Of a DNA stretch of 64,000 nt, positions 7,259 to 43,363 are shown piece after piece (position 1 is the stretch's first letter; the number at the start of each line of letters is the position of its first letter). The translations under genes and the position numbers were made by a program. The notes beneath the pieces are model-generated. The model was not told where the DNA came from. It saw only the letters and a list, made by a program, of their open reading frames with translations, and did not search any database. Location: positions 9,754-73,753 of the forward strand of contig CADBLE010000001.1 in NCBI GenBank assembly GCA_902795435.1, given 5' to 3'. The stretch is from an uncultured Pseudomonadota bacterium. Its GTDB lineage: Bacteria > Pseudomonadota > Alphaproteobacteria > Rs-D84.

Positions 7259-8542
7259 TTATTTGCTGGCCCATTCCTTTATCAATTTACCAGCAAATTT
7301 TTTGGCGTTACCCCACATCTGTTTTGTGTCATTCTTTAGTTTTTCACCAAATGAATTATCTATACTGCCACCAATTTCTTTGGTTATTTCGTCTGCTTTA
7401 CCCAGTATGTGTAATACCAAACAACCACATAAAATATTTGTCATTGCAGTGCCAACAACATAGGTTGTATTTGCACCTGTTTTTACAATATAGGATAACA
7501 ATGATGCCGCAATCGCAATCACAATAGACAGAGATACAAAATAAATTGCAGTATTTATAAATGTTGCGATTACTTCTGATAATTTTTTAGTGTTGAATAC
7601 TTTCAAGAATCCAGAAAATATTTGACCTGCATAATTTGTTTCTTTTATTGTTGGCATAGATTCTGCCAATGCAGTAAATGGTAACATTAACAGAGTTAAA
7701 AATAAATCTGCAACAATACCTAATGTCATAAATGCGTATTTCAAAATAGATTTTATAAATATATATAAAGAAATAATGCCCATTACAACGGCGGTTGCGC
7801 TGGATCCAAATCCGTTGATTATCCATTTAAAACTTAAACTGATTGCGTTATAGAAATATACAGAAAGACGAGCAGGCAAACACATAATGTTTGCAGCAGT
7901 TTGTGAATCTACAAGTAATTTAGCGGAAGAATTCGTGTTCACATATTGTTGAATTGTGGTGCATGTGTCTGGAATATCTATGTGATATGTTTCTGCAACA
8001 GAAGACAATATGAAATCAGATATGTATCTGCCCAATGAAATAATAGGGTTTATAATCATAGTAAATATTTTTGCAGGCCCATAATTCAATATAATTATCC
8101 ATATTGCAATTATAATTCCTTTCTTGAATATATCATATACAACGGTTTTATAATCACTTGATTCACGAATCATCTTGTATGCTTCCAATCCAATCCAAAA
8201 TGCATACATGAAAAACAAGAATATGATTGTAAATCGGACCAAAGATATTTGTAAAACAGAATCTATGGAAGAAAGTGCCTTCATAAATGCCAAACCAATT
8301 TTTACTTCCAATGGAACAAAATCAGAAGAATGTAAATGTGTATCAAATTTATTTTGAAAAGATGTCATATCTTCTTTCATGCCATTATTCACAACATCCA
8401 TATTAGATTGCGTCACCCATGAACCGAACTCTCCAATTTCACCCAATGGTAAATTAGTATCCGCGAAAGAATTAAAACATAAACACCAACCGCATAAAAT
8501 GCACGCAAAAAACATTTTCAAGATACTTATAAATTTTTTCAT
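7259..8542 (-). CDS. VirB6/TrbL-like polytopic membrane protein, paralogue 1 of 5
   Basis: Signal/anchor, Cys-pair loop, multiple TM helices, and tail KQMWGNAKKFAGKLIKEW. Homologous by eye to the four neighbouring ORFs. The family call rests on architecture only. Confidence 0.5.
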   Translation of the reverse strand: MKKFISILKMFFACILCGWCLCFNSFADTNLPLGEIGEFGSWVTQSNMDVVNNGMKEDMTSFQNKFDTHLHSSDFVPLEVKIGLAFMKALSSIDSVLQISLVRFTIIFLFFMYAFWIGLEAYKMIRESSDYKTVVYDIFKKGIIIAIWIIILNYGPAKIFTMIINPIISLGRYISDFILSSVAETYHIDIPDTCTTIQQYVNTNSSAKLLVDSQTAANIMCLPARLSVYFYNAISLSFKWIINGFGSSATAVVMGIISLYIFIKSILKYAFMTLGIVADLFLTLLMLPFTALAESMPTIKETNYAGQIFSGFLKVFNTKKLSEVIATFINTAIYFVSLSIVIAIAASLLSYIVKTGANTTYVVGTAMTNILCGCLVLHILGKADEITKEIGGSIDNSFGEKLKNDTKQMWGNAKKFAGKLIKEWASK

Positions 8543-9984
8543 TCTAATTTATCTTTTAATTTATCATAAATGTTTCCTGGTATGTTATACACGGTTTTTC
8601 CAAAATTTTTCAACCAAACACCGTATTCAAACACATCTTTGGAATCTTTATCTTTCAACATATCGTCAATTTTTGGAGAAACAATCCATGCGTATAAAAA
8701 GTATATACTGAACATAAATAATAAAAATTCAAAACCAGAATCCATGAAATCAAACGCCCCAGGATACTTTGATTCTACTGTCGCTTTTTTTGCATGGAAA
8801 CATTGCTTAAATATGTCTTTGTCCATTTTGCCATCTTTTAGAGCGACTTTTTCACAATCAGAAAATACCTTCATAACAGACATTGCTTCTGGGGAAGCGG
8901 CTTCTTTTTTTGTGTGTCCCATCAAAGGTGGCATTATTGTTGTGAAACTGTCTTCTGGTGATGGATAATACGCGTCCGCAGCAAAGAATACAACCGCATA
9001 AATAATTGTTATTTTAAGTGATATTTTCAATATCTTTATACTGGATGTAATAAGTATGCCTACGGACGCGTCAAATAAACCTTTGGCTAACCCCCACACC
9101 TTTTCAAATGCGGCCGCTGCAATAAGTAGTGGCATAAATATTATTATAAATATCAACCTGAATAATACATTTAATACCTGGAATATTAAATCAAATCCAA
9201 TAATCATAAATATTATTACCAGTGCCAATCCAGCCAGCCATGTGAATACACCGCCACCCAGTCCCATCCATGCATAATTCATCAAAGCAAAACCACCACC
9301 AGCACCAGCCAACATAACCGTATTCAGATTTCCCATAACGCACATGAAAGGTTTTAATACAGGATTCAATATGTCTTCATCTTGAGAAGTGGTTTTAGGA
9401 ATTTCACATGTTGTGCCACTGATTACACCAGTTGCAGCCATTGATAAAGTTGAACCAATATATAAAACAGGTGTAACAACCACATTTGTTGTTGCTCTTA
9501 AAACACCGGTGCCCCCCCAATTCATAATGCCCAAAAATGCGGCGGCTATTAAAATTCTGAGACCTGTTTTCCATACACTATCAAACCATTTTTTGAAATC
9601 CATTTCTGGTTCTTTATTGGTCAAATCTATAACATCTTTTGATGTAGCGTTTTCGCGCAAGAATTTTAATGTGTGATATATTATGAATAAACCAAAGCCA
9701 ATAACCATCAATATCCATAAATTGTGAATTATTGCATTCCAAAACATTTCTGTTGCACGTCCCAGAACTGCAAATAAATCTTGAATATAACCACATAAAA
9801 AACAACCGTTTGCAGATGCAATATCACCATTTTCAACACCAATTTGTGTCATGAAGGCATCAACGCTGGTATATGATAAAGAAGCCCCGCCAAGTGATGA
9901 AGATAAATACCAAATTCCGCACCCAATCGCGACTGCGAAGACAAGTGTTTTTAACAAAAGTTTTATCAACATTGTTTTTATCAT
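8539..9984 (-). CDS. VirB6/TrbL-like polytopic membrane protein, paralogue 2 of 5
   Basis: CFLCGYIQD motif before the first core helix, Cys-pair loop, many TM helices. Its stop overlaps the downstream start by 4 nt. Confidence 0.5.
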   Translation of the reverse strand: MIKTMLIKLLLKTLVFAVAIGCGIWYLSSSLGGASLSYTSVDAFMTQIGVENGDIASANGCFLCGYIQDLFAVLGRATEMFWNAIIHNLWILMVIGFGLFIIYHTLKFLRENATSKDVIDLTNKEPEMDFKKWFDSVWKTGLRILIAAAFLGIMNWGGTGVLRATTNVVVTPVLYIGSTLSMAATGVISGTTCEIPKTTSQDEDILNPVLKPFMCVMGNLNTVMLAGAGGGFALMNYAWMGLGGGVFTWLAGLALVIIFMIIGFDLIFQVLNVLFRLIFIIIFMPLLIAAAAFEKVWGLAKGLFDASVGILITSSIKILKISLKITIIYAVVFFAADAYYPSPEDSFTTIMPPLMGHTKKEAASPEAMSVMKVFSDCEKVALKDGKMDKDIFKQCFHAKKATVESKYPGAFDFMDSGFEFLLFMFSIYFLYAWIVSPKIDDMLKDKDSKDVFEYGVWLKNFGKTVYNIPGNIYDKLKDKLE

Positions 9985-11228
9985 TTCTTACCGTCTTTTT
10001 TGTCGTCTTTCTTATCTTCCTTTTTATCTTCTTTCTTTTCTTCTTCTTTTTTCTTTGACTCAGCAAGTGCCTTATCAGGATTTGCAATTGTTTTTGCAAC
10101 CTGTTTAACATTATCAACCATTATATTGGTCAATGCTAACACATTATCACCCATTTCTTTGGATAAAGAATCTTCTTGTTTTACACCAAATGTATCCAAC
10201 AACTTTTTCGTTATTTCTGGAATTTGTTTTTCTATGTATTCAAGAACATAAACCAAAACAATTGAACCCGCTAATGTCAATTCTTCTACGGTTGAATTAT
10301 CCAGATCAAAATCAAAAAATGATTCTGCAGAATTCTGAATTGCATCTGCATCAACACCGTTTTGATTCAGAAAACCACGAATCAACAACATGATTATTGT
10401 ATATGTCAAAATAGCAGATGACATAGACACAATTGCATTTACCAATTTCTTAATTTGACCAGCACCCAATGAACCACCTAATTTTTCCATCCATTTTGGT
10501 AAATCTTTTGCGCCCTTGAATATAAACAAGACAACAGATAATGGAAAAAAGAAACCAAACATTGCCATTGCTATGATAACGTCCATAAAACAAAAAGAAT
10601 AATGGATAAACAATTTTCCGAATTTATAGGTTAAAAATAAACCAATTATGAAAATCAGAATATGTTTTATTAAATGACCAATTCCAAATAATGCCTTGAT
10701 AGAAAACGCAGAATCCATAATTGCGACACCTATTTTTACATACACTTGGAAATTAGCAATACTGGTTTCTATTATTTTTATAAGCGTGTCACGTAATTCT
10801 GGATTAAATAAACCTTTGTCATCCAAATTTATGCTTTGGTAATTTTCTGGGATTTGATAATCTTTTGGTAACAAGGTTTTTGAATAACCTAATGTCATAA
10901 CTGCGGCTGGTTCAAATGTGATTTTGGAAATAATTTTTGGAACGGTAATCCCCAGGCTGAGTATAGATAGAGCCAGTAAAGATTTAATCAACACAGGTTT
11001 TAATGATTTATGAAAGAAAGGATCTTCAAAACCGCTTTTCATGTTTTGCCAAACAGCGTTTATAACATAAAAAGAAAACAATAAACAAAATATAATAACA
11101 CTGATGATGGTTAAACGCTGGTATGCCGCAGACGCAGCATTTGAAATAATAGAAAACAAAGAATCAAATACTGGACATGTCCAACATTGCATTCCTGAAT
11201 CTATTAAAGAGTTTGCCAGTGCTTCCAT
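9981..11228 (-). CDS. VirB6/TrbL-like polytopic membrane protein, paralogue 3 of 5, with Lys/Glu/Asp tail
   Basis: CWTCPVFD motif, TM helices, and C-terminal KKKEEEKKEDKKEDKKDDKKDGKK. There is a 4-nt overlap with the next gene. Confidence 0.5.
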   Translation of the reverse strand: MEALANSLIDSGMQCWTCPVFDSLFSIISNAASAAYQRLTIISVIIFCLLFSFYVINAVWQNMKSGFEDPFFHKSLKPVLIKSLLALSILSLGITVPKIISKITFEPAAVMTLGYSKTLLPKDYQIPENYQSINLDDKGLFNPELRDTLIKIIETSIANFQVYVKIGVAIMDSAFSIKALFGIGHLIKHILIFIIGLFLTYKFGKLFIHYSFCFMDVIIAMAMFGFFFPLSVVLFIFKGAKDLPKWMEKLGGSLGAGQIKKLVNAIVSMSSAILTYTIIMLLIRGFLNQNGVDADAIQNSAESFFDFDLDNSTVEELTLAGSIVLVYVLEYIEKQIPEITKKLLDTFGVKQEDSLSKEMGDNVLALTNIMVDNVKQVAKTIANPDKALAESKKKEEEKKEDKKEDKKDDKKDGKK

Positions 11229-11231
11229 TTT

Positions 11232-12533
11232 TTATTTCTTTTTTGACGCCTTTTCGCCGATATCCCAAATTGTTTCTATTTTTCCAGGTATTGCTTTTAT
11301 CTTTTTCCAATATTCTGATAAATCGCCTGTTACTTGGGTGTGTAAATCGTGTTTTGTTCCAGATGTATACATATCCAATCTTTCGCGTGTCATTTTGAAT
11401 ATGTTTTGCATCAAGAAAAATGTCAAAATTGCAGACAGCCATAAAATAGAATGTTGACCAAAATTCATAGCGGTATTTGTAATTGCAGGAACATTTGAAT
11501 TCGAAACACCGTTTGCACCAACAACGAATACAGATGAAGACCAATTAAACAAAGCACGAACAACAGCGATATTTACGCATAATATGAACGCGCAAGCAAT
11601 CATAGTTATAACCAGTTTCTTTAATGAATCTACTATCTGGTTAAATGCCGGCCATATATCAAACCATTTATTTGATTTTTTTGCCACCCATGCCAACACA
11701 TTAAATGGATACATAATCAAAGCCAAACAAAAATCAAAAATCGCCTGGATAATAAGCAACGACATAAACAGGTTCGCAGACACAAAAGCAACCAACAATA
11801 ATATTCCAGTTATTATATTCAATATTGGTTCTGGGTTATGTAAAAACAGAGTCAATATACTGCGAACACCAGTTTTCAAGAAACCGAAAGCATATTTTAT
11901 AACTTTGTTGTTTTCTTTGGAAATAATATAAACAGGTTTGATTAAGAAATCACAACTTCGTTTTGATATCCAACCAGATTCTTCAATAGATGCTGGGCAA
12001 ATTGGTGCGTTTTGAGATTCTGCAGTCGTAGATGTGACGGTGGTCAATATTCCTTCGGTATATATTGAACCAAATTCTAAGAAAGGATTCACCACCCATT
12101 CAGTTACATATACAGGTTTTATTTGTAATAACAGAAATATTGCAACTATTGCACGAACACAAGGTTTCATGACATTATCAGCAATTGACCAAGCAGTTGT
12201 TTTACCGTCCCACATTTCACCGCCATCACTGAACCCGATAAACGACAACCAATCTTTTGGTAAATGCATTTTCGCCAAATACAAAGATAAATAAAACAGC
12301 AAGAAAGCATAAACCAAGATATAAATAATACCGTCGCCCTGGCCAACAAAATAGTCATATAGAGATGTGGCGATGTTCATCATTGTTTCAAGAACCAATG
12401 GGACGAATGGTGCAAGATTAAAAGAATCAATTATATCTGCGTGCGCTGGTTGGGAACAACACAGTAAAAAAATCCCAACACAAACCATGTTGCGACAAAA
12501 AGTTCGTAAGAAATTTTTGTTAAAAAAACGCAT
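11232..12533 (-). CDS. VirB6/TrbL-like polytopic membrane protein, paralogue 4 of 5
   Basis: First gene of the minus-strand operon. Signal peptide ending AHADII, Cys-pair loop, TM helices, and YWKKIKAIPGKIETIW tail. Confidence 0.5.
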   Translation of the reverse strand: MRFFNKNFLRTFCRNMVCVGIFLLCCSQPAHADIIDSFNLAPFVPLVLETMMNIATSLYDYFVGQGDGIIYILVYAFLLFYLSLYLAKMHLPKDWLSFIGFSDGGEMWDGKTTAWSIADNVMKPCVRAIVAIFLLLQIKPVYVTEWVVNPFLEFGSIYTEGILTTVTSTTAESQNAPICPASIEESGWISKRSCDFLIKPVYIISKENNKVIKYAFGFLKTGVRSILTLFLHNPEPILNIITGILLLVAFVSANLFMSLLIIQAIFDFCLALIMYPFNVLAWVAKKSNKWFDIWPAFNQIVDSLKKLVITMIACAFILCVNIAVVRALFNWSSSVFVVGANGVSNSNVPAITNTAMNFGQHSILWLSAILTFFLMQNIFKMTRERLDMYTSGTKHDLHTQVTGDLSEYWKKIKAIPGKIETIWDIGEKASKKK

Positions 12534-28417: not shown

Positions 28418-28445
28418 TTGATAACACAATAATTTATGGTAAAAT
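28418..28445 (+). promoter_or_regulatory. sigma70-type promoter for cassette A
   Basis: TTGATA (28418-28423), 16-nt spacer, TG-extended TAAAAT (28440-28445). Confidence 0.5.
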
Positions 28446-28474
28446 ATCCTATATGAGAATATAGGATTTTTATT
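28446..28474 (+). terminator. Perfect 9-bp hairpin with GAGA loop and T-tract; 3' arm carries the AGGA Shine-Dalgarno of the next gene
   Basis: ATCCTATAT-GAGA-ATATAGGAT followed by TTTTATT, immediately before ATG 28475. Confidence 0.5.
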
Positions 28475-29521
28475 ATGAAAAAAATTGCTTTGTTATTCAC
28501 TGTTTTGCCGATTTCTGCGTTTGCTGCATCAGAAGCGGAAATTGCATTGACTACTGCTTTGTCACATGCACGTGAAAATTGTTCCGGGGTATCTGCCAAA
28601 ATGGAAAATATAAAAAAGATGGCTGGTATTGGAACGGCTGTGAATGCTGTCGGAACCGCGGCGGGTGTTGGTGGTGTGGCCAGTGGTGTTATAAAACAAA
28701 AAACAGATGTCGAAATGGCCAGAACAATGGGTGAAAAAGCCGGTATAGATTTAATAATAGAAAAATTGAAACAAAAAGAATTATCCCCAGAAAACCAAAA
28801 TCTTTTAAAACAGAGGTTTTCAATAGGTCCTGATTTAGAAAAAAATTTGGAAAAATTGGCAGCGGAGATGTCTGAATCTGACATGGGAGAAAAAATCAAC
28901 GACCTTGAAAAGAAAAGTGATGAATTGCAAAACAAAATAAACCAACAACAAAAGAAATCTGATATTGCTGGTAATGTCAGAACGGGTATGTTCGCCGTTG
29001 ATACTGTTTCTAATGTTGCGGGTGCGGTTGTTTCGTCAAAAACAATAGTAGATGATGATTTTGTAGAACAAATCAAAAAATGTACAGAATCTGTGGCGGA
29101 ATTACGTGATGCGCGTGTAAGGGCAAAGGTAGAAGATGGTGGTATGGGATTGACTCAGAATATGGATATAAGTCAGAAAATAATTGAAAAATGTGGTGAA
29201 TATGAATATGTAAATTTAACGCCATTGAAAAATTTAGGCAAAGGCGCGGTTGCAGCAAATTCTATCGGTTCTGTAACTGGTGCCACAGCAACCATAACCA
29301 GTGCGTTGGGAAACAGTAAACATTTATCTGATATGGATTTCAGAACAAAGCAAGGTTTATCAGATGTAAAAAAATATGAAAGTATGAATACTGCAAGTAA
29401 TGTTTTGGGTGGTGTGACAACGGCTGCATCTTTGACGGGAACTGTGTTAAATGCAATCCAGATAAAAGAAGCAAAAAAGATTTTAGATATTTCTTCAGAA
29501 TGTGAGGGGGCTTTGCAATGA
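28475..29521 (+). CDS. Exported small-residue/glycine-zipper-like protein, cassette A gene 1 (paralogue of 38832..39779)
   Basis: Signal peptide, four Gly/Ala/Thr/Val-rich segments (AGIGTAVNAVGTAAGVGGVASGV...), 4 conserved Cys, C-terminal ECEGALQ. Clearly alignable with the 38832 protein. Confidence 0.8.
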   Translation: MKKIALLFTVLPISAFAASEAEIALTTALSHARENCSGVSAKMENIKKMAGIGTAVNAVGTAAGVGGVASGVIKQKTDVEMARTMGEKAGIDLIIEKLKQKELSPENQNLLKQRFSIGPDLEKNLEKLAAEMSESDMGEKINDLEKKSDELQNKINQQQKKSDIAGNVRTGMFAVDTVSNVAGAVVSSKTIVDDDFVEQIKKCTESVAELRDARVRAKVEDGGMGLTQNMDISQKIIEKCGEYEYVNLTPLKNLGKGAVAANSIGSVTGATATITSALGNSKHLSDMDFRTKQGLSDVKKYESMNTASNVLGGVTTAASLTGTVLNAIQIKEAKKILDISSECEGALQ

Positions 29522-30360
29522 TAAAACGTATATTATTAGCATCTTTGTTTTTATTTATGCCAATATTCGCACATGGGGATGTTGTTTTTGGTGAAAATAT
29601 GGACGAAAAAAATATCCCATTAGATATGGATATTATGACATATGCTTTTGAAAAAGCGTTTGATATGATTATACAATATAATGACCATATTGGAGCTACA
29701 AATAAAATTCAGGATAAATTTTATAATTATTTGTTTAATAAGTATTCTGCACCTTTTTCATTAAGAGATTTAGTTGATGTATGCAGAAAGGGGGTTGGTA
29801 AAACAAAAACAAAAGAATGTGTGGATTTTGTTAATCTTTATGTTAATAGATTGGTTGAGTATCATGGAAGTGGCGTTTTTGTACCGACAGTCAAGGTAGA
29901 TAAACTTGCAGGTGCGATAGATACAAATGATGTTGCAACTGTTGAAAGATATATTCAACAAGGTGGTAATGTAAATATTATTATCAATAAGGAATTGAAT
30001 CAAACTCCTTTGAATAGAGCAGCCATGAAAGGACAAGAACAAATCGTTGATATGCTTATAAAAGCTGGAGCTTATGTAAATGTTGCTGATGCCAATAATA
30101 TTACCCCTTTGGCATGGGCAGTGTATGAAAATAATGAAAAGATAACTTTATCTTTAATAAAAGCGGGTGCAAATGTAAATGTATCTAATATTATTGGTGA
30201 TAATCTGATTGCAAGTATAATAAGTAAACAAAATATAAATATGTTTCATCTGTTGGCTAAGGCGGGGGTAGATTTACATATAACAGAAGCGTGTAATACT
30301 GTAGAACAAATGCAGGATTGGGAATATTATACAGAAGTTAGAAAGAAAGTTTGTTTTTAA
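29518..30360 (+). CDS. Exported ankyrin-repeat protein, cassette A gene 2
   Basis: ATGA overlap with the upstream gene. Signal peptide MIKRILLASLFLFMPIFAHG. ANK repeats (TPLNRAAMKGQEQIVDMLIKAGAYVN, TPLAWAVYENNEKITLSLIKAGANVN). Confidence 0.82.
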   Translation: MIKRILLASLFLFMPIFAHGDVVFGENMDEKNIPLDMDIMTYAFEKAFDMIIQYNDHIGATNKIQDKFYNYLFNKYSAPFSLRDLVDVCRKGVGKTKTKECVDFVNLYVNRLVEYHGSGVFVPTVKVDKLAGAIDTNDVATVERYIQQGGNVNIIINKELNQTPLNRAAMKGQEQIVDMLIKAGAYVNVADANNITPLAWAVYENNEKITLSLIKAGANVNVSNIIGDNLIASIISKQNINMFHLLAKAGVDLHITEACNTVEQMQDWEYYTEVRKKVCF

Positions 30361-30392: not shown

Positions 30393-30412
30393 ATTTCTGG
30401 TTACCATCATAA

Positions 30413-30565
30413 TTATTTAACAGCAGACACTGCCAAACGTTTACGGCCGGCAGCACGACGACGATTCAATACGTCACGTCCAGATTTTGTTGCCATTTTT
30501 TCACGGAATCCGTGTGTCTTTACACGACGTGTTTTAGATGGTTGATATGTTCTTTTTGTTGCCAT
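30413..30565 (-). CDS. rpmH: 50S ribosomal protein L34
   Basis: Hand translation gives [50 protein letters not shown] (50 aa, below the track cutoff). AAGGA RBS present. The track ORF 30351..30545(+) is its antisense. Confidence 0.93.
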
Positions 30566-34142: not shown

Positions 34143-35012
34143 TTATTTTTTTATTTTTAATACAGGTATTTTACGGAATAAATATACTTTATAATTGACT
34201 TTGTTTTTAACAGCAATACGCAACAATGGAATGTTAAATAAAAATAATTCATATACAGTATTGTAAGAATCTTTTTCCATTTTTATATTGTTTCTGAGCA
34301 TATATGATTTTATGTAATCAATTAAAATTTCATTATCAAGATATGGGTATAAACAACGTAATTTTTTAATCTTAGCAATAACAACCTTTTTTACGAAAGG
34401 AAGTCCTTTAGTTAATGTTTCCAATGGGTTTGGACTGGTTTGCATAAGAGATTTTATTTTGAAACCATGACGAATTATCATATTTGATAAACCAACTTCG
34501 TATTTATAACAAATATCTATTTTTGTGTTTTCGTGTTTTATTTTATTTACGAAATTATCAAAAAATTCACTTGTAAATATTTGTTTAGAAAAACCCACAA
34601 ACCATGATTGTATATGAACAGGTGTATGTGCACCATGGGAATCTGTCATACCAACCAATTGTGTATCAGAAGATTCAAGTGTTTCTAAAATGTGGCTGAT
34701 GTCAAATAATGGCCCAAACACAGAATCGTTTACAAAATACATCCAATCATAGTTGGCTAAAATTTTGTTTTCTTTTGCCCATAAATATCCGCGTTTATAA
34801 GAACCAAAATCATATTCCAAATGTCTTTTTGCATTTGCATATAAAACATTTGGAATGGTTGATATTTTTTCCAGTTCTGTATCTGGTAAATCATTATCAG
34901 CAAAGAAAACAACATCACCGATTTTAGATAATTCTGATACATAATAAATTACAGTATTATCAACAATGTTGTCTTTATCATAACCAGCAAATAAAAATAA
35001 ACGTCTAGTCAT
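34143..35012 (-). CDS. Rhamnan-synthesis-protein-F (RgpF)-like glycosyltransferase
   Basis: LFAGYDKDNIVDNTVIYYVSEL...EYDFGSYKRG resembles the RgpF family as I remember it. Confidence 0.55.
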   Translation of the reverse strand: MTRRLFLFAGYDKDNIVDNTVIYYVSELSKIGDVVFFADNDLPDTELEKISTIPNVLYANAKRHLEYDFGSYKRGYLWAKENKILANYDWMYFVNDSVFGPLFDISHILETLESSDTQLVGMTDSHGAHTPVHIQSWFVGFSKQIFTSEFFDNFVNKIKHENTKIDICYKYEVGLSNMIIRHGFKIKSLMQTSPNPLETLTKGLPFVKKVVIAKIKKLRCLYPYLDNEILIDYIKSYMLRNNIKMEKDSYNTVYELFLFNIPLLRIAVKNKVNYKVYLFRKIPVLKIKK

Positions 35013-35076
35013 CAGATATCCTTTTGTTATTCATACTGTATAAATTTGATATTATAAAGACAAGATATTTTTTTAT

Positions 35077-35105
35077 AAAAAAAGCCGGTAAATGCCGGCA
35101 ATTTT
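35077..35105. repeat. Copy 2 of the AAAAAAAGCCGGTAAATGCCGGC hairpin
   Basis: Identical 23-mer, in the same orientation as 34108..34130, with a similar T-rich tail. Confidence 0.8.
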
Positions 35106-35151
35106 TTGTTTAATTTAAAAATATGTTTTTGAATACATATTTATACTTTAT

Positions 35152-35179
35152 TTGATTATTGAAATATATGACTTATAAT
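35152..35179 (+). promoter_or_regulatory. sigma70-type promoter placed for a leaderless transcript
   Basis: TTGATT (35152-35157), 16-nt spacer, TATAAT (35174-35179). ATG 35186 lies 6 nt after the -10, with no SD. Confidence 0.5.
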
Positions 35180-35185
35180 TGGCTT

Positions 35186-36916
35186 ATGAAATCAAAAACC
35201 TATCTTATCAATAACAAAGAACTCATGTCCGAATGGGACTATGAGAAGAATATTGATTTAGATCCAAAAATATTAACACCTGGTTCAAATAAAAAATCGT
35301 GGTGGGTTTGTAAAAAATGTGGGCATAAGTGGTGTACAACAATTCATCATAGAGCAGTTAGAAAACAAGATTGTCCAAAGTGTCGTTATGTTTTTAAGAA
35401 AAAAATAAATTCTAAATTAACAATTACACACCAAAAAACAAATCAATATTGGTTGTATGAAAAAAACGGTTTGTTAAAACCAGAATTATTTAGTCAATAT
35501 TCTAGTCAAAAGGTATGGTGGAAATGTCCAGATTGTGGTTACGAATGGGAAGAAAAAATTAAAAACCAAGTAAAAAAACTGGTATGGTGCCCACAATGTA
35601 AAAGGGGTATAAAAGATTTGGCTTCTACAAAACCAGAACTTTTAAAAGAGTGGAATTATAACAAAAATACCATATCACCAAACCATATAACATATGCTAG
35701 TAATAAATATGCTTGGTGGAAATGTAGTAAATGTGGTTATGAATGGAAAGCAAAAATCTCTAACAGATCATTATTAAACCGTGGTTGCCCTTGTTGTTCA
35801 GAACCTGTAAGAGTTGTTGTCCCAGGGATAAATGATTTAAAAACAAAATTTCCATACATAGCCAAAGAATGGCACCCAACAAAAAATGGTGATTTGGTAC
35901 CAGAACAATTTGCTGGTGGTTCTAAACAAAAAGTTTGGTGGCTATGCCCAATTGGGCACGAATATCAAGCCACTATAAATCATAGAACACACCCAGACGG
36001 AACAGGGTGTCCAATATGTTATTCTGGCAGACAAACATCATTTGCTGAACAAGCAATATATTTTTATGTGAATAAATTATATCCTGATGCAATAAGCAGA
36101 TATACAGCAGATTTCCTTGGTAAATTTGAATTGGATATTTATATACCATCAATTAAATACGCAATAGAATACGACGGCGAAGCGTGGCATAAAGAAAACA
36201 AAATAGAACGAGAAAAAAGAAAATATAAACTTTGTAAAGATAACGGAATTACATTACTCAGAATGCGTGAAAAAATGCCAGAATTGGGGACTGAAATTGC
36301 TGACTATATGATAAGTATGCCAAATTTATATGAACATAAAAATCTAGAATTTGCTTTAAGACAATTGCTAATAAAATTGAATTTATACAAACCAATATCA
36401 AATACTTTGATAAATTTAGAAAGAGATAAAAACAAGATTCTTGAATATAAAAAATCTGCTGTATCAGATTCTTTATTATCAGTTAGACCGGATATAGCTA
36501 TGGAATGGCATCCAACTAAAAATGGTAATTTATTACCTAGCATGTTTAAACCTGGTTCTAGTCATAGGGTGTGGTGGATGTGTCCTAAATGTGGTTGTGA
36601 ATATCAAACGGCTATACACCATAGAACAAGAAAGGGACAGGAAACCGGTTGTCCAAAATGTGCCTTAAAGAAGAATGGAGTTTCTAGTCGGGTTGCAGTA
36701 AACATGATATCTCTCGAAACAAATGAAGTGATAAAAACATTTGTTTCTATATCTGAAGCAGGAAGACAGATGAAAATAAATCCAGCAAATATAGGAAGTG
36801 TATGTAGAGGACAACGAAATTATGCGGGTGGTTATAAGTGGAAATACGCTGATGAGAAAATAGCTAAAAAATATAAAGAACACATTACACAAATAGAAAT
36901 GAAATTTAATAACTAA
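35186..36916 (+). CDS. Five-fold zinc-ribbon repeat protein with PD-(D/E)XK nuclease core and C-terminal NUMOD/IENR-like HTH (homing-endonuclease-like)
   Basis: Five repeats of W..(K/T)KN.....GS..K.WW.C..CG..W......R.....CP.C. Nuclease-like ELDIYIP...IEYDGEAWH. C-terminal ...ISEAGRQMKINPANIGSVCRG...AGGYKWKY. The start could also be TTG 35159. Confidence 0.7.
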   Translation: MKSKTYLINNKELMSEWDYEKNIDLDPKILTPGSNKKSWWVCKKCGHKWCTTIHHRAVRKQDCPKCRYVFKKKINSKLTITHQKTNQYWLYEKNGLLKPELFSQYSSQKVWWKCPDCGYEWEEKIKNQVKKLVWCPQCKRGIKDLASTKPELLKEWNYNKNTISPNHITYASNKYAWWKCSKCGYEWKAKISNRSLLNRGCPCCSEPVRVVVPGINDLKTKFPYIAKEWHPTKNGDLVPEQFAGGSKQKVWWLCPIGHEYQATINHRTHPDGTGCPICYSGRQTSFAEQAIYFYVNKLYPDAISRYTADFLGKFELDIYIPSIKYAIEYDGEAWHKENKIEREKRKYKLCKDNGITLLRMREKMPELGTEIADYMISMPNLYEHKNLEFALRQLLIKLNLYKPISNTLINLERDKNKILEYKKSAVSDSLLSVRPDIAMEWHPTKNGNLLPSMFKPGSSHRVWWMCPKCGCEYQTAIHHRTRKGQETGCPKCALKKNGVSSRVAVNMISLETNEVIKTFVSISEAGRQMKINPANIGSVCRGQRNYAGGYKWKYADEKIAKKYKEHITQIEMKFNN

Positions 36917-38769: not shown

Positions 38770-38794
38770 ACGCCCGAAAGGGCGTTTTTATTTT
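38770..38794 (+). terminator. Rho-independent terminator
   Basis: ACGCCC-GAAA-GGGCGT plus T-run. Confidence 0.65.
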
Positions 38795-38831: not shown

Positions 38832-39779
38832 ATGAATATTAAAAAGAATGTAGTTATTTGCTTGTTATCGGTATTTGTAATAGGCAATTCTGCAAATGCA
38901 GAATTGTTGGATTTAAATACTGCATTACAAAATACCTATAAATCGTGTGTCGGTATAGATGAAATTTTAACAGATATGAAAAAATTAGCCGGAATAAATA
39001 CTGCTGTAACTGCGGTCGGTTCTGGGCTTGGTATCGGGGCAACTGTTACTGGATTTGTAAAGGCATCAAAAGATAAAAAAATAGAACAATTATTAAAACG
39101 ACTGAAAGAAATAGAAGAATCAAAAATAAATACAACCGTTCCTGATAAAAGGGAAGTTTTAAGTGCTGCAGATGATTATTTTTCAGAAAACAGAGATGAA
39201 AATCGTGCAAATGAATATCAAAGTGAAATTGATAAATTAACAAAACAATCAAAAACACTGGGGAATTGGAGAACAGGTTTGTTGGCTGGTAATACTGTGA
39301 CGAATATTGCTGGTGCGATTATTGCGGGTAAAAACAACGGTGATGAAGTCCAGGTTTTAATAGATGAATGTCGTGATAGTATAACTGGGTTGAATAATTC
39401 TATATTGCAGGCAAAGATAAACGGTGAAGATGTAAGCGAAGCAGAAAGCATTAAAAAAGCGTGCGGTGCGTATGATATGGTTGATGTTTCTAAAATAAAT
39501 ATTCGTGCCAAGGGGGCAAAAATATCTTCTATCATTGGTGCCGGTATGGGTGCTGCGGGAACTATAACAAGTGGTGTCGCAAATTCAGACAAAATTCGTG
39601 ATGATGATAGTGTCAGCGGAAAACAAAAAGAAAAAAATTTAAATACTGCGGCGAATGTTTTGTCTGTGGGGGCAACCGCTGCAACAATTTCTGCGACTGT
39701 ATTTAATGCAACCCAAATAAGTGCAATTAAAAAAGCAGCCACCGTTGCACAAGAATGTGAAAAGGTTCTGCGTCAATGA
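38832..39779 (+). CDS. Exported small-residue/glycine-zipper-like protein, cassette B gene 1 (paralogue of 28475..29521)
   Basis: MNIKKNVVICLLSVFVIGNSANA signal. The segments LAGINTAVTAVGSGLGIGATVTG, GNWRTGLLAGNTVTNIAGAIIA and NTAANVLSVGATAATISATVFNATQ match cassette A gene 1. Same 4 Cys positions; ends ECEKVLRQ. Confidence 0.8.
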   Translation: MNIKKNVVICLLSVFVIGNSANAELLDLNTALQNTYKSCVGIDEILTDMKKLAGINTAVTAVGSGLGIGATVTGFVKASKDKKIEQLLKRLKEIEESKINTTVPDKREVLSAADDYFSENRDENRANEYQSEIDKLTKQSKTLGNWRTGLLAGNTVTNIAGAIIAGKNNGDEVQVLIDECRDSITGLNNSILQAKINGEDVSEAESIKKACGAYDMVDVSKINIRAKGAKISSIIGAGMGAAGTITSGVANSDKIRDDDSVSGKQKEKNLNTAANVLSVGATAATISATVFNATQISAIKKAATVAQECEKVLRQ

Positions 39780-42700
39780 TTAAACGTTGTCTTGCATCTT
39801 TGGTAATATTCTTAACAACAATGGTTGCTGGTTTTGCGAGCAGTTATTTGAACACTGAAAAGAAATATTTCTTTTCTTCAGATAATATTTTTGAAAGCGT
39901 TACCGCTGTTATCACAGATGAAGACCAATATTCATCAGCAATAAAAAAATATGTAGAAATTATGGACCAGGCAACTGGTATGGTTTCTATTGAAGATTTG
40001 TTTGTTGTTTGCCGTGCAGGTGGAATAAATACATATCGTGAAGAAGGTTATCAAAAATGTCGTGAAATTATCATAAAAATGCTGGAAAACGCTGAATTAG
40101 AAGCAGAAGAAGGTGTCTTAGGTGGATATTGTCCAGGACTTGATAAAAACGGAAAGAATCCAAACGCACTTCAAACAATTACAGATAAAACAAAGATTGG
40201 TGATTTTTGTAATTCTACCAATATATATCTTGGCGAAGTTGTTTTCAAAAAAGGTTATAATTGCACATGTATGGCAACCGCATGTAATCATGGCTATTTC
40301 ATCAAGGGTGGGGCCTGTCATACAGAGGTTGGTGATGCCAATGGAAATTGTTTACGCAAAGAATATGATGGAACAAGTGAAAATAATTCAAAAGAAAAAT
40401 GTTTTGCTTTCTGTGGAAAAATGGGCGAAAAACTGGGGTGCAAGGCAAACACTTCTATTTGGAATAAAAACACAAACAAATGCACATGTAATGCGTCTTA
40501 TGATGAATTAGATGCTGTACGTCAGGCACGTATAGCTGCACTGTCTTATAAAGCGGTTTGTGGTGCAGATAAAGGTAAAACTGGTGGTACAGAATATTGT
40601 ATTAAAGATATTTTCAATTGGACAAATGTTGGTATGATTCAGGCAACTGGATTGGCAGAAGAATACGCACTTGTCAAACATGGCAAGGTTATTCATTGTT
40701 CTGATAAATATCGTCAAGAATCTAATGATGATTGGGTTCAATGTGTAACTGATGATAAAAAGACATTTTATGAATTTAAGTTTGATGATGTTGTTGAATC
40801 TTTTGATGCAAGAATTCAAGGGGATTTAATAAAAGGTATTATAACTATACATGGTAAAATCGCTATTTCTTCATCTGAAGGTGGTGGTTATTATGATTCT
40901 TACGCGGGTGCTTGTGATGAAAAAATAACAAAGTCAGCAAACAAATTTGGATTGAAATCAGAAACTGTTAATAAATATGGTGCAGATTATTGCTTCCTAA
41001 AAAGCACAAGACTTGGTAAAAAAGAAAAAGGTAAATTGGCAAAAATTGATGGTATAGATAACTACATCTTTTATGCTGGTATTCAAATTCAAGGAGACCA
41101 AGATTTAATACGTAAATTACGTCAATATATCGCAAGTACTGGTAAATACGAAGTTAAAACATTTACTTGTGATAAAGGTGTTGGCAAAATTATGAACGGA
41201 AATATTGAAACTGATGATATTTTGCGTTGTTATTTAAATGGAACGCCGATTGATTTTGTGTTTGATGATAATTCTGAAATGTGGAAAACCTATCAAAAGG
41301 CTGGTAAACAAGCGATAAATTGTGTTGTTCAGGGTGGAACTTTTTCTGGTAAAGGGTGCCTTGGGCTTAGTGAACAATTGTGTCAAAAGGTTGCTGAACA
41401 AGATAAAAAATCATGTCCAGAATGTGCAGTGGCACATTGGGATTCGGAACTTGAACAATGTGTGTTACCTGCGGGTGCGGCAGCAAGAAACCTTGAACAG
41501 GGTATCAAAGTTGGAACAATAGTTGTTGCGGCTGTTGCGGGAACTGCGGTGACAATTGCAACTGGTGGTGCCACAGGTGCGGGTGTTGCATTGCTTTTAG
41601 TCGAAGTTGTTGGTGCAACCGTAGAAACTGCAGCGACAGTAAAAATACAACAAGCTGCGGTTGATTTCTTGAATAACAGTAATCGTTGTAAAGATGCAAG
41701 TTGCGCTGAATCTATGATAAAAGATAATTTCCAAAGATTGGCAAATATGCAAAATGATTTTGCTGCCGCAGAAGTTGATGCTATTGATAAAGAATTTGCA
41801 AGGTTGTTTGGATTAGTGCCAGAAACATCTGCTTTATTCAATAGTTCAAGGTTATCTGATAATCAATTGTCTTTGTTTGATTCAAATTCATGGGAACCTG
41901 AACAGGTATGGCGTGCAGTTGGTGTTGGGTTGCAAATGGCCGGATTGGTGGCAAGTGCTGTTCAATGGATTTCTGATAAAGCACCACGAATGTTGGGCAG
42001 AACAACCCAGATTGTCACGAAAAAGATGCAAGTTGCAGCATCACATGCAGATGATGCGGCAAGATTAGCATTGGAGCACGGAGATGATGCAGCCAGATTG
42101 GCATTGACTCAGGGTGATGATGTGGCCAGATTGGCATTGACTCAAGGAGATGACGCAGCCAGATTAGCATTGACGCAGGGTGATGATGCAGCCAGATTGG
42201 CATTGACACAGGGTGATGATGCAGCCAGATTGGCATTGACTCAGGGTGATGACGCAGCCAGATTAGCGTTGACGCAGGGAGATGACGCAGCTAGATTAGC
42301 GTTGACGCAGGGTGATGATGCAGCAAAATCAGTATTATCTAATGCAGATGAATTTGCATCTATTGGTGTAAGGGAAGAAACAACAGCGTCTGGTGCACTT
42401 AGATATCGTGATACCAAGACAGGACGTTTTATATCACAGGATGAGGTGTATAAGAGATTAGACGATTTACCATCTGCTGTGACAAAAACAACATCATCAT
42501 TATCTAACGCAGATGAATTTGCAGCAATAGGGGTAAGAGAAGAAACAACAGCGTCTGGTGCATTCAGATATCGTGATACAAAAACAGGCCGCTTTATATC
42601 ACAGGATGAGGTATATAAGAGATTAGACGATTTACCATCTTCTGTGACAAAAACAACAGCCGCAACCAATACAGCAACAAAATCTGATGATGTGGCAAAT

Positions 42701-43363
42701 TCTTTGTCAAAAATAGATAATCTTGATAATAATCGTCTTGCGTTACCTGCACATGTTGATGATGCTGCGAATACCGCAAGTGATGCTGCAAGAAATACGA
42801 GCAGGGCAGCGGATACCGCAAGTGGTGCCGCACGTGGTGCTGCCAATGCAAGTCGCACTGTAAATGATTTTGATGATATGTATCAAATTGGTTATAAAGC
42901 ATCAAGCAGAGATGAAATATTAAAGAAATGGGGATTACCATTAGATGCAAGTGATAGTGATATTGCAAAAAGATTTAAAGAATTACAAAGAAGATTCCAT
43001 CCTGACAGGGCGGGTCCAGATAAAGCATTGGCAGACCAATTAGATGAAATATTCAAAGATATTGGTCAAGAAAGAGATTTATTAAATTCTTTGTCAAAAA
43101 CAAATGGCGCGAATAATGTATCTGATGTTATAAGAACCGCACCAACAACAGATGTTGTTGCAACTGGTGTGACAAATACGGCCACATCTGCAACATCTGC
43201 CGCTAATAAAACATCTGGTGTTTCAAAAGTTGCTATAAATAACGTAACAGAGGGAACAAATACTGTGTCCACGATTGAACAAAGAGATGGCTTCTCTATG
43301 GTTGGACATGATTTATTAGGGATTTTGGCTGGTATTCGTGCTGGTGATAATGCTTCAAAATAA
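39776..43363 (+). CDS. 1195-aa multidomain exported/membrane protein, cassette B gene 2
   Basis: ATGA overlap with the upstream gene. MIKRCLASLVIFL... signal, Cys-rich region of about 450 aa, Gly/Ala/Val/Thr hydrophobic block(s), 8.5 x 11-aa repeats, 2 x 55-aa repeats, and a J-domain with HPD at 42998-43006. Confidence 0.85.
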   Translation: MIKRCLASLVIFLTTMVAGFASSYLNTEKKYFFSSDNIFESVTAVITDEDQYSSAIKKYVEIMDQATGMVSIEDLFVVCRAGGINTYREEGYQKCREIIIKMLENAELEAEEGVLGGYCPGLDKNGKNPNALQTITDKTKIGDFCNSTNIYLGEVVFKKGYNCTCMATACNHGYFIKGGACHTEVGDANGNCLRKEYDGTSENNSKEKCFAFCGKMGEKLGCKANTSIWNKNTNKCTCNASYDELDAVRQARIAALSYKAVCGADKGKTGGTEYCIKDIFNWTNVGMIQATGLAEEYALVKHGKVIHCSDKYRQESNDDWVQCVTDDKKTFYEFKFDDVVESFDARIQGDLIKGIITIHGKIAISSSEGGGYYDSYAGACDEKITKSANKFGLKSETVNKYGADYCFLKSTRLGKKEKGKLAKIDGIDNYIFYAGIQIQGDQDLIRKLRQYIASTGKYEVKTFTCDKGVGKIMNGNIETDDILRCYLNGTPIDFVFDDNSEMWKTYQKAGKQAINCVVQGGTFSGKGCLGLSEQLCQKVAEQDKKSCPECAVAHWDSELEQCVLPAGAAARNLEQGIKVGTIVVAAVAGTAVTIATGGATGAGVALLLVEVVGATVETAATVKIQQAAVDFLNNSNRCKDASCAESMIKDNFQRLANMQNDFAAAEVDAIDKEFARLFGLVPETSALFNSSRLSDNQLSLFDSNSWEPEQVWRAVGVGLQMAGLVASAVQWISDKAPRMLGRTTQIVTKKMQVAASHADDAARLALEHGDDAARLALTQGDDVARLALTQGDDAARLALTQGDDAARLALTQGDDAARLALTQGDDAARLALTQGDDAARLALTQGDDAAKSVLSNADEFASIGVREETTASGALRYRDTKTGRFISQDEVYKRLDDLPSAVTKTTSSLSNADEFAAIGVREETTASGAFRYRDTKTGRFISQDEVYKRLDDLPSSVTKTTAATNTATKSDDVANSLSKIDNLDNNRLALPAHVDDAANTASDAARNTSRAADTASGAARGAANASRTVNDFDDMYQIGYKASSRDEILKKWGLPLDASDSDIAKRFKELQRRFHPDRAGPDKALADQLDEIFKDIGQERDLLNSLSKTNGANNVSDVIRTAPTTDVVATGVTNTATSATSAANKTSGVSKVAINNVTEGTNTVSTIEQRDGFSMVGHDLLGILAGIRAGDNASK
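42050..42328 (+). repeat. 33-bp in-frame tandem repeat, 8 full copies plus a partial one (DDAARLALTQG)
   Basis: Units start at 42050, 42083, 42116, 42149, 42182, 42215, 42248, 42281 and 42314 (partial). A few synonymous or conservative differences between units. Confidence 0.95.
42335..42664 (+). repeat. 165-bp in-frame tandem duplication (55 aa x 2)
   Basis: LSNADEF(A/A)(S/A)IGVREETTASGA(L/F)RYRDTKTGRFISQDEVYKRLDDLPS(A/S)VTKTT occurs twice, starting at 42335 and 42500. Confidence 0.9.

Follow-up and report, generated by a model that had tools for sequence, protein, structure and literature searches.

Polymorphic toxins (contact-dependent inhibition (CDI) proteins, Rhs, LXG and type VI secretion system (T6SS) effectors, in the classification of Zhang and Aravind) combine a conserved N-terminal trafficking domain with variable C-terminal toxins. 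In type VII secretion, small cytoplasmic WXG100-like helpers, EsxE/EsxF for CpnT and Lap for the LXG toxins, bind the N-terminal region of the toxin and are needed for its export. The cohesin–dockerin pairs of the cellulosome allow one scaffold to bind many enzymes through a small conserved docking tag, and Rickettsia RARP-1 is a Sec-exported ankyrin protein of Alphaproteobacteria. Here, we analysed a stretch of 64 kb (the window; positions 9,754 to 73,753 of contig CADBLE010000001.1, assembly GCA_902795435.1) from an uncultured alphaproteobacterium of the order Rs-D84. It contains two copies of a two-gene module, cassettes A and B, in which a gene for an exported helical protein (g1, the putative carrier) is followed by a gene for an exported protein (g2) with a conserved N-terminal domain, the handle, and a variable C-terminal part, the cargo. 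Cassette A is one copy of a module specific to gut Alphaproteobacteria with reduced genomes, namely Candidatus Enterousia and its relatives in Rs-D84. A constant partner, a constant tag and a variable cargo form a layout of a known kind; what is new are the proteins themselves, their Sec-based export, the upstream one-to-one partner and the restriction to Rs-D84, which are undescribed in the libraries and literature searched. Tentatively, and with slightly less than even confidence, we read the module as a lineage-specific Sec-exported carrier with a handle-tagged effector that would act on partner cells, the delivery being the part that we infer.

The genomes of Rs-D84, the order to which Enterousia belongs, are mostly smaller than 1 Mb, and encode neither the tricarboxylic acid cycle nor respiration, flagella or standard transporters (PMC12306168). 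These bacteria occur widely in the rumen and in the guts of horses, chickens and humans. Many of the membrane proteins that they encode are unexplained, and an obligate life as symbionts or parasites of other cells has been proposed for them (PMC12306168). A preliminary description of the window, made from its letters alone, had proposed looking for further cassettes. One genome per GTDB species was scanned for g1, taking as the pattern the stretch of the second small-residue helix of g1A, the cassette A protein (GNVRTG motif), and using a 9-member alignment. The scan confirmed 300 g1 stretches; the 80 that were retrieved carry record titles such as Candidatus Enterousia or Alphaproteobacteria bacterium. 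When 1.84 billion cluster representatives were searched exhaustively with a profile (E <=0.001), the g1 family comprised 475 clusters at 50% identity, and the nearest relatives of g1A were hypothetical proteins from metagenome-assembled genomes of uncultured gut and rumen Alphaproteobacteria. The set of related loci used below comprised 167 members: 80 genome loci, 79 metagenome loci, several look-ups and the window itself.

The two g1 proteins of the window are paralogues, as previously supposed (BLASTP, 32% identity over 345 columns, E 3e-44), and no third copy was detected in the window by tblastn. The near-identity noted between the two g1/g2 junctions also holds: CAATGATAAAACGT in cassette A and CAATGATTAAACGT in cassette B are both ATGA overlaps, from which each g2 starts with MIKR. 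This arrangement is general in the family. In the 167 loci, the C-terminal end of g1 could be located for 166 genes, 163 of which are followed by a coupled g2; two of the three exceptions are located at contig ends. The g2 start lies at position −4 relative to the g1 stop in 132 of the 163 modules, at −1 in 27, at −7 in two and at +1 or +2 in the rest, and the start codon is ATG in 157 of them. Since g2 begins on the stop codon of g1, both proteins should be made together. Both g2 proteins of the window were thought to carry signal peptides, and their N-termini, a basic n-region followed by a hydrophobic stretch, agree with that prediction; a signal-peptide-like N-terminus was read on every g2 among the first 89 modules. 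The g2 proteins range from approximately 136 to 1602 aa. A Shine–Dalgarno-like GAGGGGG is located 8–14 nt 5′ of the g2A ATG (window 29501..29521), within the g1A codons for the C-terminal Cys-Glu-Gly. As this motif falls inside the conserved end of g1, these nucleotides are possibly under a double constraint, as protein sequence and as the g2 ribosome-binding site.

The preliminary description also perceived a weak N-terminal motif with two Cys residues shared by the two g2 proteins of the window. Pairwise comparison does not reveal it (best BLASTP E 0.89, off the motif), so a profile is needed to detect the handle. A first hidden Markov model (HMM), for which 38 close relatives of g2B residues 23–110 were used without the signal peptide and without any g2A-like sequence, nevertheless retrieved g2A in a search of 85 sequences (E 9.5e-5, 15.3 bits). 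The match falls precisely on the motif of the preliminary description, the g2A segment ...FSLRDLVDVCRKG...ECVDFVNLYVNRLVE aligning to the model consensus ...isvddlfkVCraAG...C.kFvnalle. Once g2A was included in the model, its match reached E 3.6e-13, and 65 of the 85 g2 proteins matched after iteration. The resulting alignment defines a domain of approximately 65 aa with two invariant Cys, and the AlphaFold2 (AF2) model of g2B folds it confidently as a helical domain in which these two Cys lie on adjacent helices. In the enlarged set, 108 of 152 unique g2 proteins, about 70%, have the handle. Its genomic distribution is strict: among the 9334 stop-to-stop segments of at least 60 aa in all loci of the set (1.70 Mb), all 114 handle matches fall in the gene directly after g1. 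A search of a 5.8-billion-protein set with the handle alignment found nothing, the domain being too short for a database of that size.

Beyond the handle, the g2 proteins diverge, and cassette A is a case in point. The ankyrin repeats previously recognised in g2A exceed the Pfam cut-offs (Ank PF00023, E 3.5e-12, 46.3 bits, cut-off 21.1; Ank_2 PF12796, E 6.1e-12, 46.4 bits, cut-off 27.3). The protein has Cys at positions 89, 101, 259 and 279. In the window, cassette A is surrounded by valS, an acyl-ACP thioesterase gene, rpmH (minus strand) and gyrA. Two metagenomic contigs (L167 and L168) share the order valS, thioesterase, g1, g2 and rpmH, with gyrA and merR in one of them, and their g1 proteins are 70% and 68% identical to g1A. 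Their g2 proteins have only 148–149 aa, consisting of a signal peptide, the handle and approximately 30 further residues, with no ankyrin repeats, indicating that the ankyrin domain is a lineage-specific appendage on a conserved handle. The comparison of these contigs with the window is the clearest evidence of cargo exchange. The rpmH gene itself, for ribosomal protein L34, is found at about 30400..30560 on the minus strand, between g2A and gyrA; it is below the size covered by the list of open reading frames, and confirms the synteny with both contigs.

The g1A clade is small and distinct, with seven members in the set, all with short partners. It is associated with at least five different g2 C-termini: the ankyrin repeats of the window, a 229-aa protein, a 477-aa Cys-rich protein, handle-only proteins of 136–149 aa and a protein with reversed order. 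In the latter (L090; g1 43% identical to g1A, start 5001), a 301-aa g2 has ankyrin-like repeats first and a handle-like motif at the C-terminus (IPFSIRNLKDYCEY...CAQFALTYVQEL). These repeats were seen by eye, and Pfam gave no match at E up to 0.01.

Across the family, the 56 complete short forms of g2 fall into at least 21 C-terminal classes. The largest class, with 12 members, is homologous both to phage Gp29 (9vvp, N-terminal domain; 6.5e-10) and to the Enc34 endolysin (7q47, PHA02564; 5.7e-5), whose matching catalytic domain has a lysozyme-like fold (PMC8943055). A seven-member class is Tlde1/YkuD-like: its Pfam match to Tlde1_dom (1.1e-5) is below the cut-off, its PDB matches are solely to Tlde1a and it has a conserved HG...SxGC motif. 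Another class, of four members, is weakly GH108-like (GH108 at 0.0024, together with GH108-type PDB matches), one g2 has a GH73 glucosaminidase domain (1.7e-8) and a five-member class is trypsin-like, with Pfam confirming two of its members as proteases (Trypsin 9e-10). From these similarities, several short cargos are predicted to be cell-wall enzymes, a type also employed as antibacterial effectors. Taken together, the coupling to g1, the frequency of the handle and the change of cargo in the two syntenic contigs agree with the earlier proposal of a conserved partner and a conserved N-terminal handle with differing C-termini. None of the three findings named beforehand as contradicting that proposal was obtained: cassettes abound in related genomes, the handle withstands the profile comparison and g1 belongs to no characterised family.

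The g2B protein of cassette B had been taken as merely another swapped cargo, which proved incorrect, as it represents the commonest g2 type. These long forms account for 79 of the 152 unique g2 proteins and are homologous to g2B over a Cys-rich core of approximately 500 aa and a hydrophobic stretch of 35–50 residues; a hydrophobic hairpin is present in nearly all of them. They differ in the tail only, and the tails are nearly Cys-free. Many Cys of the outer domain are near-invariant, as are C638 and C643, and none of the 31 Cys of g2B occurs after residue 643. In 71 long forms, Cys make up 3.7% of the residues upstream of the last hydrophobic segment versus 0.47% in the tails, a pattern of a Cys-rich front and a Cys-poor tail that is consistent with export. 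All 83 database relatives of g2B are hypothetical proteins. The AF2 model of g2B residues 1–800 has a predicted local distance difference test score (pLDDT) mostly about 90 over residues 30–570, and about 60–85 over 110–190, and a Foldseek search of the PDB with this model returned no match. The g2 core likewise has no match in Pfam, NCBIfam, PHROGs, PDB or BFVD. In an additional search, hhalign gave no alignment between the g2 hydrophobic hairpin and the small-residue helices of g1, and their homology was rejected.

The Cys-rich region, hydrophobic segments and repeats described for g2B were all recovered, but its J domain is weak (PF00226, E 4.8e-4, 20.6 bits, below the 27.8 cut-off). The PDB matches of this region are also weak (E 0.02–1), although nearly all are J-domain chains with the HPD motif aligned, and DnaJ is found in one other member of the g2B family at 3.6e-7. 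In the long-form tails, most of which have no assigned domain, Pfam matched DnaJ in 2 of 40 and a Kdo-type kinase in 2 of 38, with single matches to PRANC, SprT-like and PBCV_basic_adap. A PF03536 (SpvC/VRP3) tag on one database relative (P0301) was not reproduced at E 1e-3 and was, therefore, not used. The 33-bp repeat unit of the g2B tail encodes ALTQGDDAARL, and the tail repeats could permit length variation. Split long forms were observed in L010 (478 aa, followed by a 906-aa open reading frame (ORF) starting 4 nt later) and in L147, which could reflect a frameshift, a pseudogene or an assembly error.

The g1 protein is the constant element. A probable signal peptide covers residues 1–17 of g1A (AFA|AS). 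The 45-member family alignment agrees with the earlier reading of four equivalent Cys, four small-residue segments and ECExxL-type ends: the Cys are invariant (C36, C203, C240 and C343), the small-residue segments are the most conserved blocks and the consensus C-terminus is ...xCExALx. Kyte–Doolittle hydropathy peaks at 1.45 in helix 1 and 1.35 in helix 4 of g1A. The AF2 model is all-helical, with long helices, and of medium confidence (pLDDT 74.8; predicted template modelling score, pTM, 0.53), with low pLDDT at residues 110–118, within the insert that separates helices 1 and 2. Three long g1 variants reach 600–760 aa overall. In two of them (P0191, 616 aa, and P0234, 708 aa), a coiled-coil insertion of several hundred residues separates helices 1 and 2, suggesting a stalk whose length varies, and the third (P0242) has a long Cys-containing insertion in place of the coiled coil. 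Pfam searches with these variants returned just coiled-coil noise and sub-threshold patatin matches.

That neither family could be recognised from the letters alone is borne out for g1, which matches no characterised family in the sequence libraries, PDB or BFVD. Searches of Pfam, NCBIfam, PHROGs, a PDB sequence profile, PDB folds and BFVD folds gave nothing significant. The Pfam glycine-zipper families (Gly-zipper_Omp, YMGG and similar) do not match g1 even at E up to 1, and the term glycine-zipper-like, applied to it earlier, describes its composition only. The module defines three families without database or structural relatives: the g1 carrier, the two-Cys handle and the Cys-rich core of the long forms.

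We propose that both g1 and g2 would cross the inner membrane through the Sec pathway and fold with disulfide bonds, and that g1 would bind the handle one-to-one. As the constant carrier, g1 would then place, hold or pass the variable domain of g2 at or beyond the cell surface, where this domain might act on the envelope of the partner cell on which Rs-D84 depends. In the long forms, the protein’s own hairpin would insert into a membrane, leaving the nearly Cys-free tail, with the J domain in g2B, on the reducing side. For cassette A, the module would deliver an ankyrin domain that binds proteins, not an enzyme. The module has multiple copies in genomes of less than 1 Mb, with at least three in assembly JAZRBB01 and two in the 64-kb window, of which they occupy approximately 10%. 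A lineage-specific, multi-copy, conserved exported protein coupled to fast-changing cargos is a concrete and testable candidate for partner-interaction machinery, and the module may be how the partner-dependent Rs-D84 act on other cells. In its boldest form, which we consider unlikely, the proposal would make g1 a new helical translocator or docking stalk of a Sec-dependent two-component delivery device that carries handle-tagged cargos, whether enzymes, binding domains or membrane-inserting long forms, into the partner envelope, as the main tool of these bacteria to attach to, breach and exploit other cells.

Several observations weigh against a carrier and effector module acting on partner cells. 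No outer-membrane route is linked to the modules, with secretin and TcpQ genes immediately upstream in just 7 of approximately 163 loci. There is no immunity gene, nor a conserved co-oriented downstream gene, either overall or in any cargo class. No translocator, pore former, chaperone or adaptor matches g1 in sequence or fold, so that the role as pore, translocator or chaperone-like partner suggested earlier has no structural match behind it: the top Foldseek match of g1 in the PDB has E 0.066, with a template modelling (TM) score <0.3, and its BFVD matches are generic long helices. The small-residue helices of g1 are moderately hydrophobic (Kyte–Doolittle peaks 1.2–1.5) and contain invariant polar residues, which makes their membrane insertion speculative. 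About 30% of the g2 proteins lack a detectable handle. The divergences of g1 and handle correlate (Mantel r 0.52, p 0.001), but shared descent alone predicts this correlation, and we do not accept it as proof of co-evolution. Finally, the cargos disagree on whether the target is bacterial or eukaryotic, the ankyrin, J-domain and PRANC matches pointing one way and the peptidoglycan enzymes the other.

Part of this evidence would fit a role in the producer’s own envelope, to which we assign a minor but appreciable probability. In such a case, g1 would be a periplasmic coiled-coil scaffold or regulator of the producer’s hydrolases and membrane proteins during growth, division or remodelling, resembling EnvC and PcsB, coiled-coil factors that control amidases and hydrolases. 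The Sec signals on both proteins, together with the lack of a linked, dedicated outer-membrane export route, are compatible with this role, as are the many peptidoglycan enzymes among the cargos, and self-directed, regulated enzymes would need no immunity gene. Some modules are, moreover, in stable housekeeping synteny, for instance next to ruvC or gyrA, and the long forms have a topology that would suit an inner-membrane protein with its J-domain tail in the cytoplasm and another domain in the periplasm. However, housekeeping wall enzymes are normally single-copy and stable, whereas we found many paralogous modules with numerous short cargo classes, and a cargo gained or lost at one orthologous locus. 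Ankyrin, PRANC, kinase and phage-type endolysin cargos would be unusual for maintenance of the cell’s own wall, and genomes of less than 1 Mb rarely retain many paralogues of 1000–1600 aa for redundant roles. The number of paralogues, the diversity of cargos and their turnover at an orthologous locus argue against this alternative and leave the carrier and effector module as the reading that we prefer.

A second alternative, which appears improbable, is a binary pore-forming toxin: g1 would belong with the alpha-helical pore formers of the ClyA/Yax/Ahl kind, its small-residue helices forming the membrane-inserting head, and g2 would be the second component or passenger. As in the ClyA superfamily (YaxAB/XaxAB, AhlABC/SmhABC and Hbl/Nhe), the genes are adjacent, here co-translated and both exported, and g1 is a long-helix protein with a variable coiled-coil stalk and conserved small-residue, hydrophobic helices. 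The pore forms of AhlB and SmhB even appear in the Foldseek list of g1, but at noise level (E 0.7–1.4, probability 0.09–0.15, TM about 0.2). In contrast to that superfamily, the medium-confidence g1 model has no significant fold similarity to it (Foldseek against the PDB, nothing at E <=0.001), and the weakly hydrophobic segments of g1 include invariant polar residues. Moreover, g2 is unrelated to g1 (hhalign) and mostly non-helical, the outer domain of g2B being alpha/beta. A classical toxin–immunity system between bacteria, with g1 as the immunity protein or secretion-system adaptor, is highly improbable, although a conserved N-terminal domain precedes variable C-terminal enzymes, including a Tlde1-like fold of type VI secretion effectors. 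The upstream position of g1 and its far higher conservation than that of the cargo rule it out as a toxin-specific immunity protein, Sec signals are present on both proteins, and neither a conserved small gene downstream nor type V, VI or VII (T5/T6/T7) secretion genes were found nearby.

The layout of polymorphic effector or toxin delivery, suggested in the preliminary description, thus stands only in part. Like the polymorphic toxins, the g2 proteins have a constant N-terminal module with interchangeable C-termini, occur in many paralogous loci per genome with rapid cargo turnover and include some of the same kinds of predicted cell-wall enzymes. Unlike them, they are exported with Sec signal peptides, their constant partner is an exported helical protein of 300–350 aa encoded upstream, and a single conserved type of long membrane protein accounts for half of the cargos. 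The lack of an immunity gene and of a linked secretion system (T5/T6/T7) indicates that this is not a classical polymorphic toxin system. Similar to the EsxE/EsxF and Lap helpers, g1 is helical, encoded just upstream of g2 and co-expressed with it, and would bind the N-terminal region of its partner; it differs from them in being large, Sec-exported and presumably Cys-bonded, and in belonging to a Gram-negative lineage.

The handle resembles a dockerin in being a small conserved tag on differing catalytic domains, but each tagged g2 has its own co-translated g1, and there is no sequence or fold relation. As in holin–endolysin cassettes, the g1 gene overlaps the start of a wall-hydrolase gene in some modules, the largest short class being homologous to the Enc34 lysozyme-like domain. 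However, g1 is approximately three to four times larger than holins, with a cleavable-type signal and no strong membrane-spanning helices, and its match to a PHROGs holin reaches only E 0.027. In addition, most cargos, including the ankyrin repeats of cassette A, are not lysins, and there is no phage context. Like RARP-1, g2A comes from a host-dependent alphaproteobacterium and combines a Sec signal peptide with ankyrin repeats downstream of it; g2A differs in having a handle domain and a coupled g1 partner.

Table 1. Coordinates of the features of cassettes A and B in the 64-kb window (AF2, AlphaFold2; ORF, open reading frame).
Feature	Position	Strand	Basis
g1A, exported all-alpha carrier (putative), 348 aa	28475..29521	+	ORF, paralogy to g1B, AF2
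g1A small-residue helix 1, aa 50-73, AGIGTAVNAVGTAAGVGGVASGVI	28622..28693	+	conserved block; invariant G51, T54, G60, G71
g1A variable coiled-coil insert, aa 75-160, between helices 1 and 2	28697..28954	+	gap-rich columns
g1A small-residue helix 2, aa 166-188, GNVRTG motif	28970..29038	+	invariant G166, R169, T170, A174, G183, A184
g1A small-residue helix 3, aa 255-278	29237..29308	+	invariant G257, G265, S276
g1A small-residue helix 4, aa 305-328	29387..29458	+	invariant N309, T323, N326
ATGA overlap, g2A start on g1A stop codon (translational coupling)	29518..29521	+	sequence
g2A, exported handle-tagged cargo protein, 280 aa, signal peptide about aa 1-20	29518..30360	+	ORF
g2A handle domain, aa 68-113, invariant C89 and C101	29719..29856	+	profile match
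g2A ankyrin-repeat cargo, aa 133-256	29914..30285	+	Pfam
g1B, paralogous carrier (putative), 315 aa from ATG (TTG at 38793 less likely)	38832..39779	+	ORF, BLASTP, alignment
g2B, long-form partner, 1195 aa, start overlaps g1B stop (ATGA)	39776..43363	+	ORF, sequence
g2B handle domain, aa 41-103, C79 and C95	39896..40084	+	profile seed; AF2 helical, pLDDT about 90
g2B Cys-rich alpha/beta outer domain, aa 110-565	40103..41470	+	26 of 31 Cys; AF2
g2B hydrophobic hairpin, aa 576-624; Cys pair C638/C643 follows	41501..41647	+	hydropathy
g2B third hydrophobic segment, aa 711-733	41906..41974	+	hydropathy
g2B tail repeats, 33 bp x8.3 (42050-42324) and 165 bp x2 (42334-42658)	42050..42658	+	repeat analysis
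g2B probable J domain, aa 1053-1101, HPD motif	42932..43078	+	Pfam DnaJ, PDB matches

The flanks of the modules are ordinary housekeeping genes that vary between loci, and clustering of the neighbouring ORFs revealed no third conserved gene. The commonest neighbours are another g1 in tandem, gyrA and a secretin with TcpQ (7 loci). Tandem modules are found at L032, L057 and L068; in one example, a module with a handle and an Enc34-like lysin is followed by a module of g1 and a trypsin-like protease. In those seven loci, among them L001 (3315..5897), g1 is directly preceded on its own strand by the genes for a TcpQ-domain protein and a secretin. This pair, which is not next to the cassettes of the window, might serve as an exit route through the outer membrane where it occurs.

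Elsewhere in the window, four abutting ORFs on the minus strand (7259..12533) encode proteins of 427, 481, 415 and 433 aa with no Pfam match at E <=1e-5. At least three have hydrophobic N-termini, and the first and last are weakly similar (E about 2e-4), so that this is possibly another lineage-specific envelope operon. A 789-aa ORF (2021..4390, plus strand) has a signal-peptide-like start and no Pfam match. Between the two cassettes, a patch of low GC content (34143..36916; about 29–32% versus about 35–39% nearby) may have been horizontally acquired; it contains a divergent 289-aa ORF and the gene for a 585-aa protein in which a DUF4379 treble-clef zinc finger is repeated five times (E 8.7e-93).

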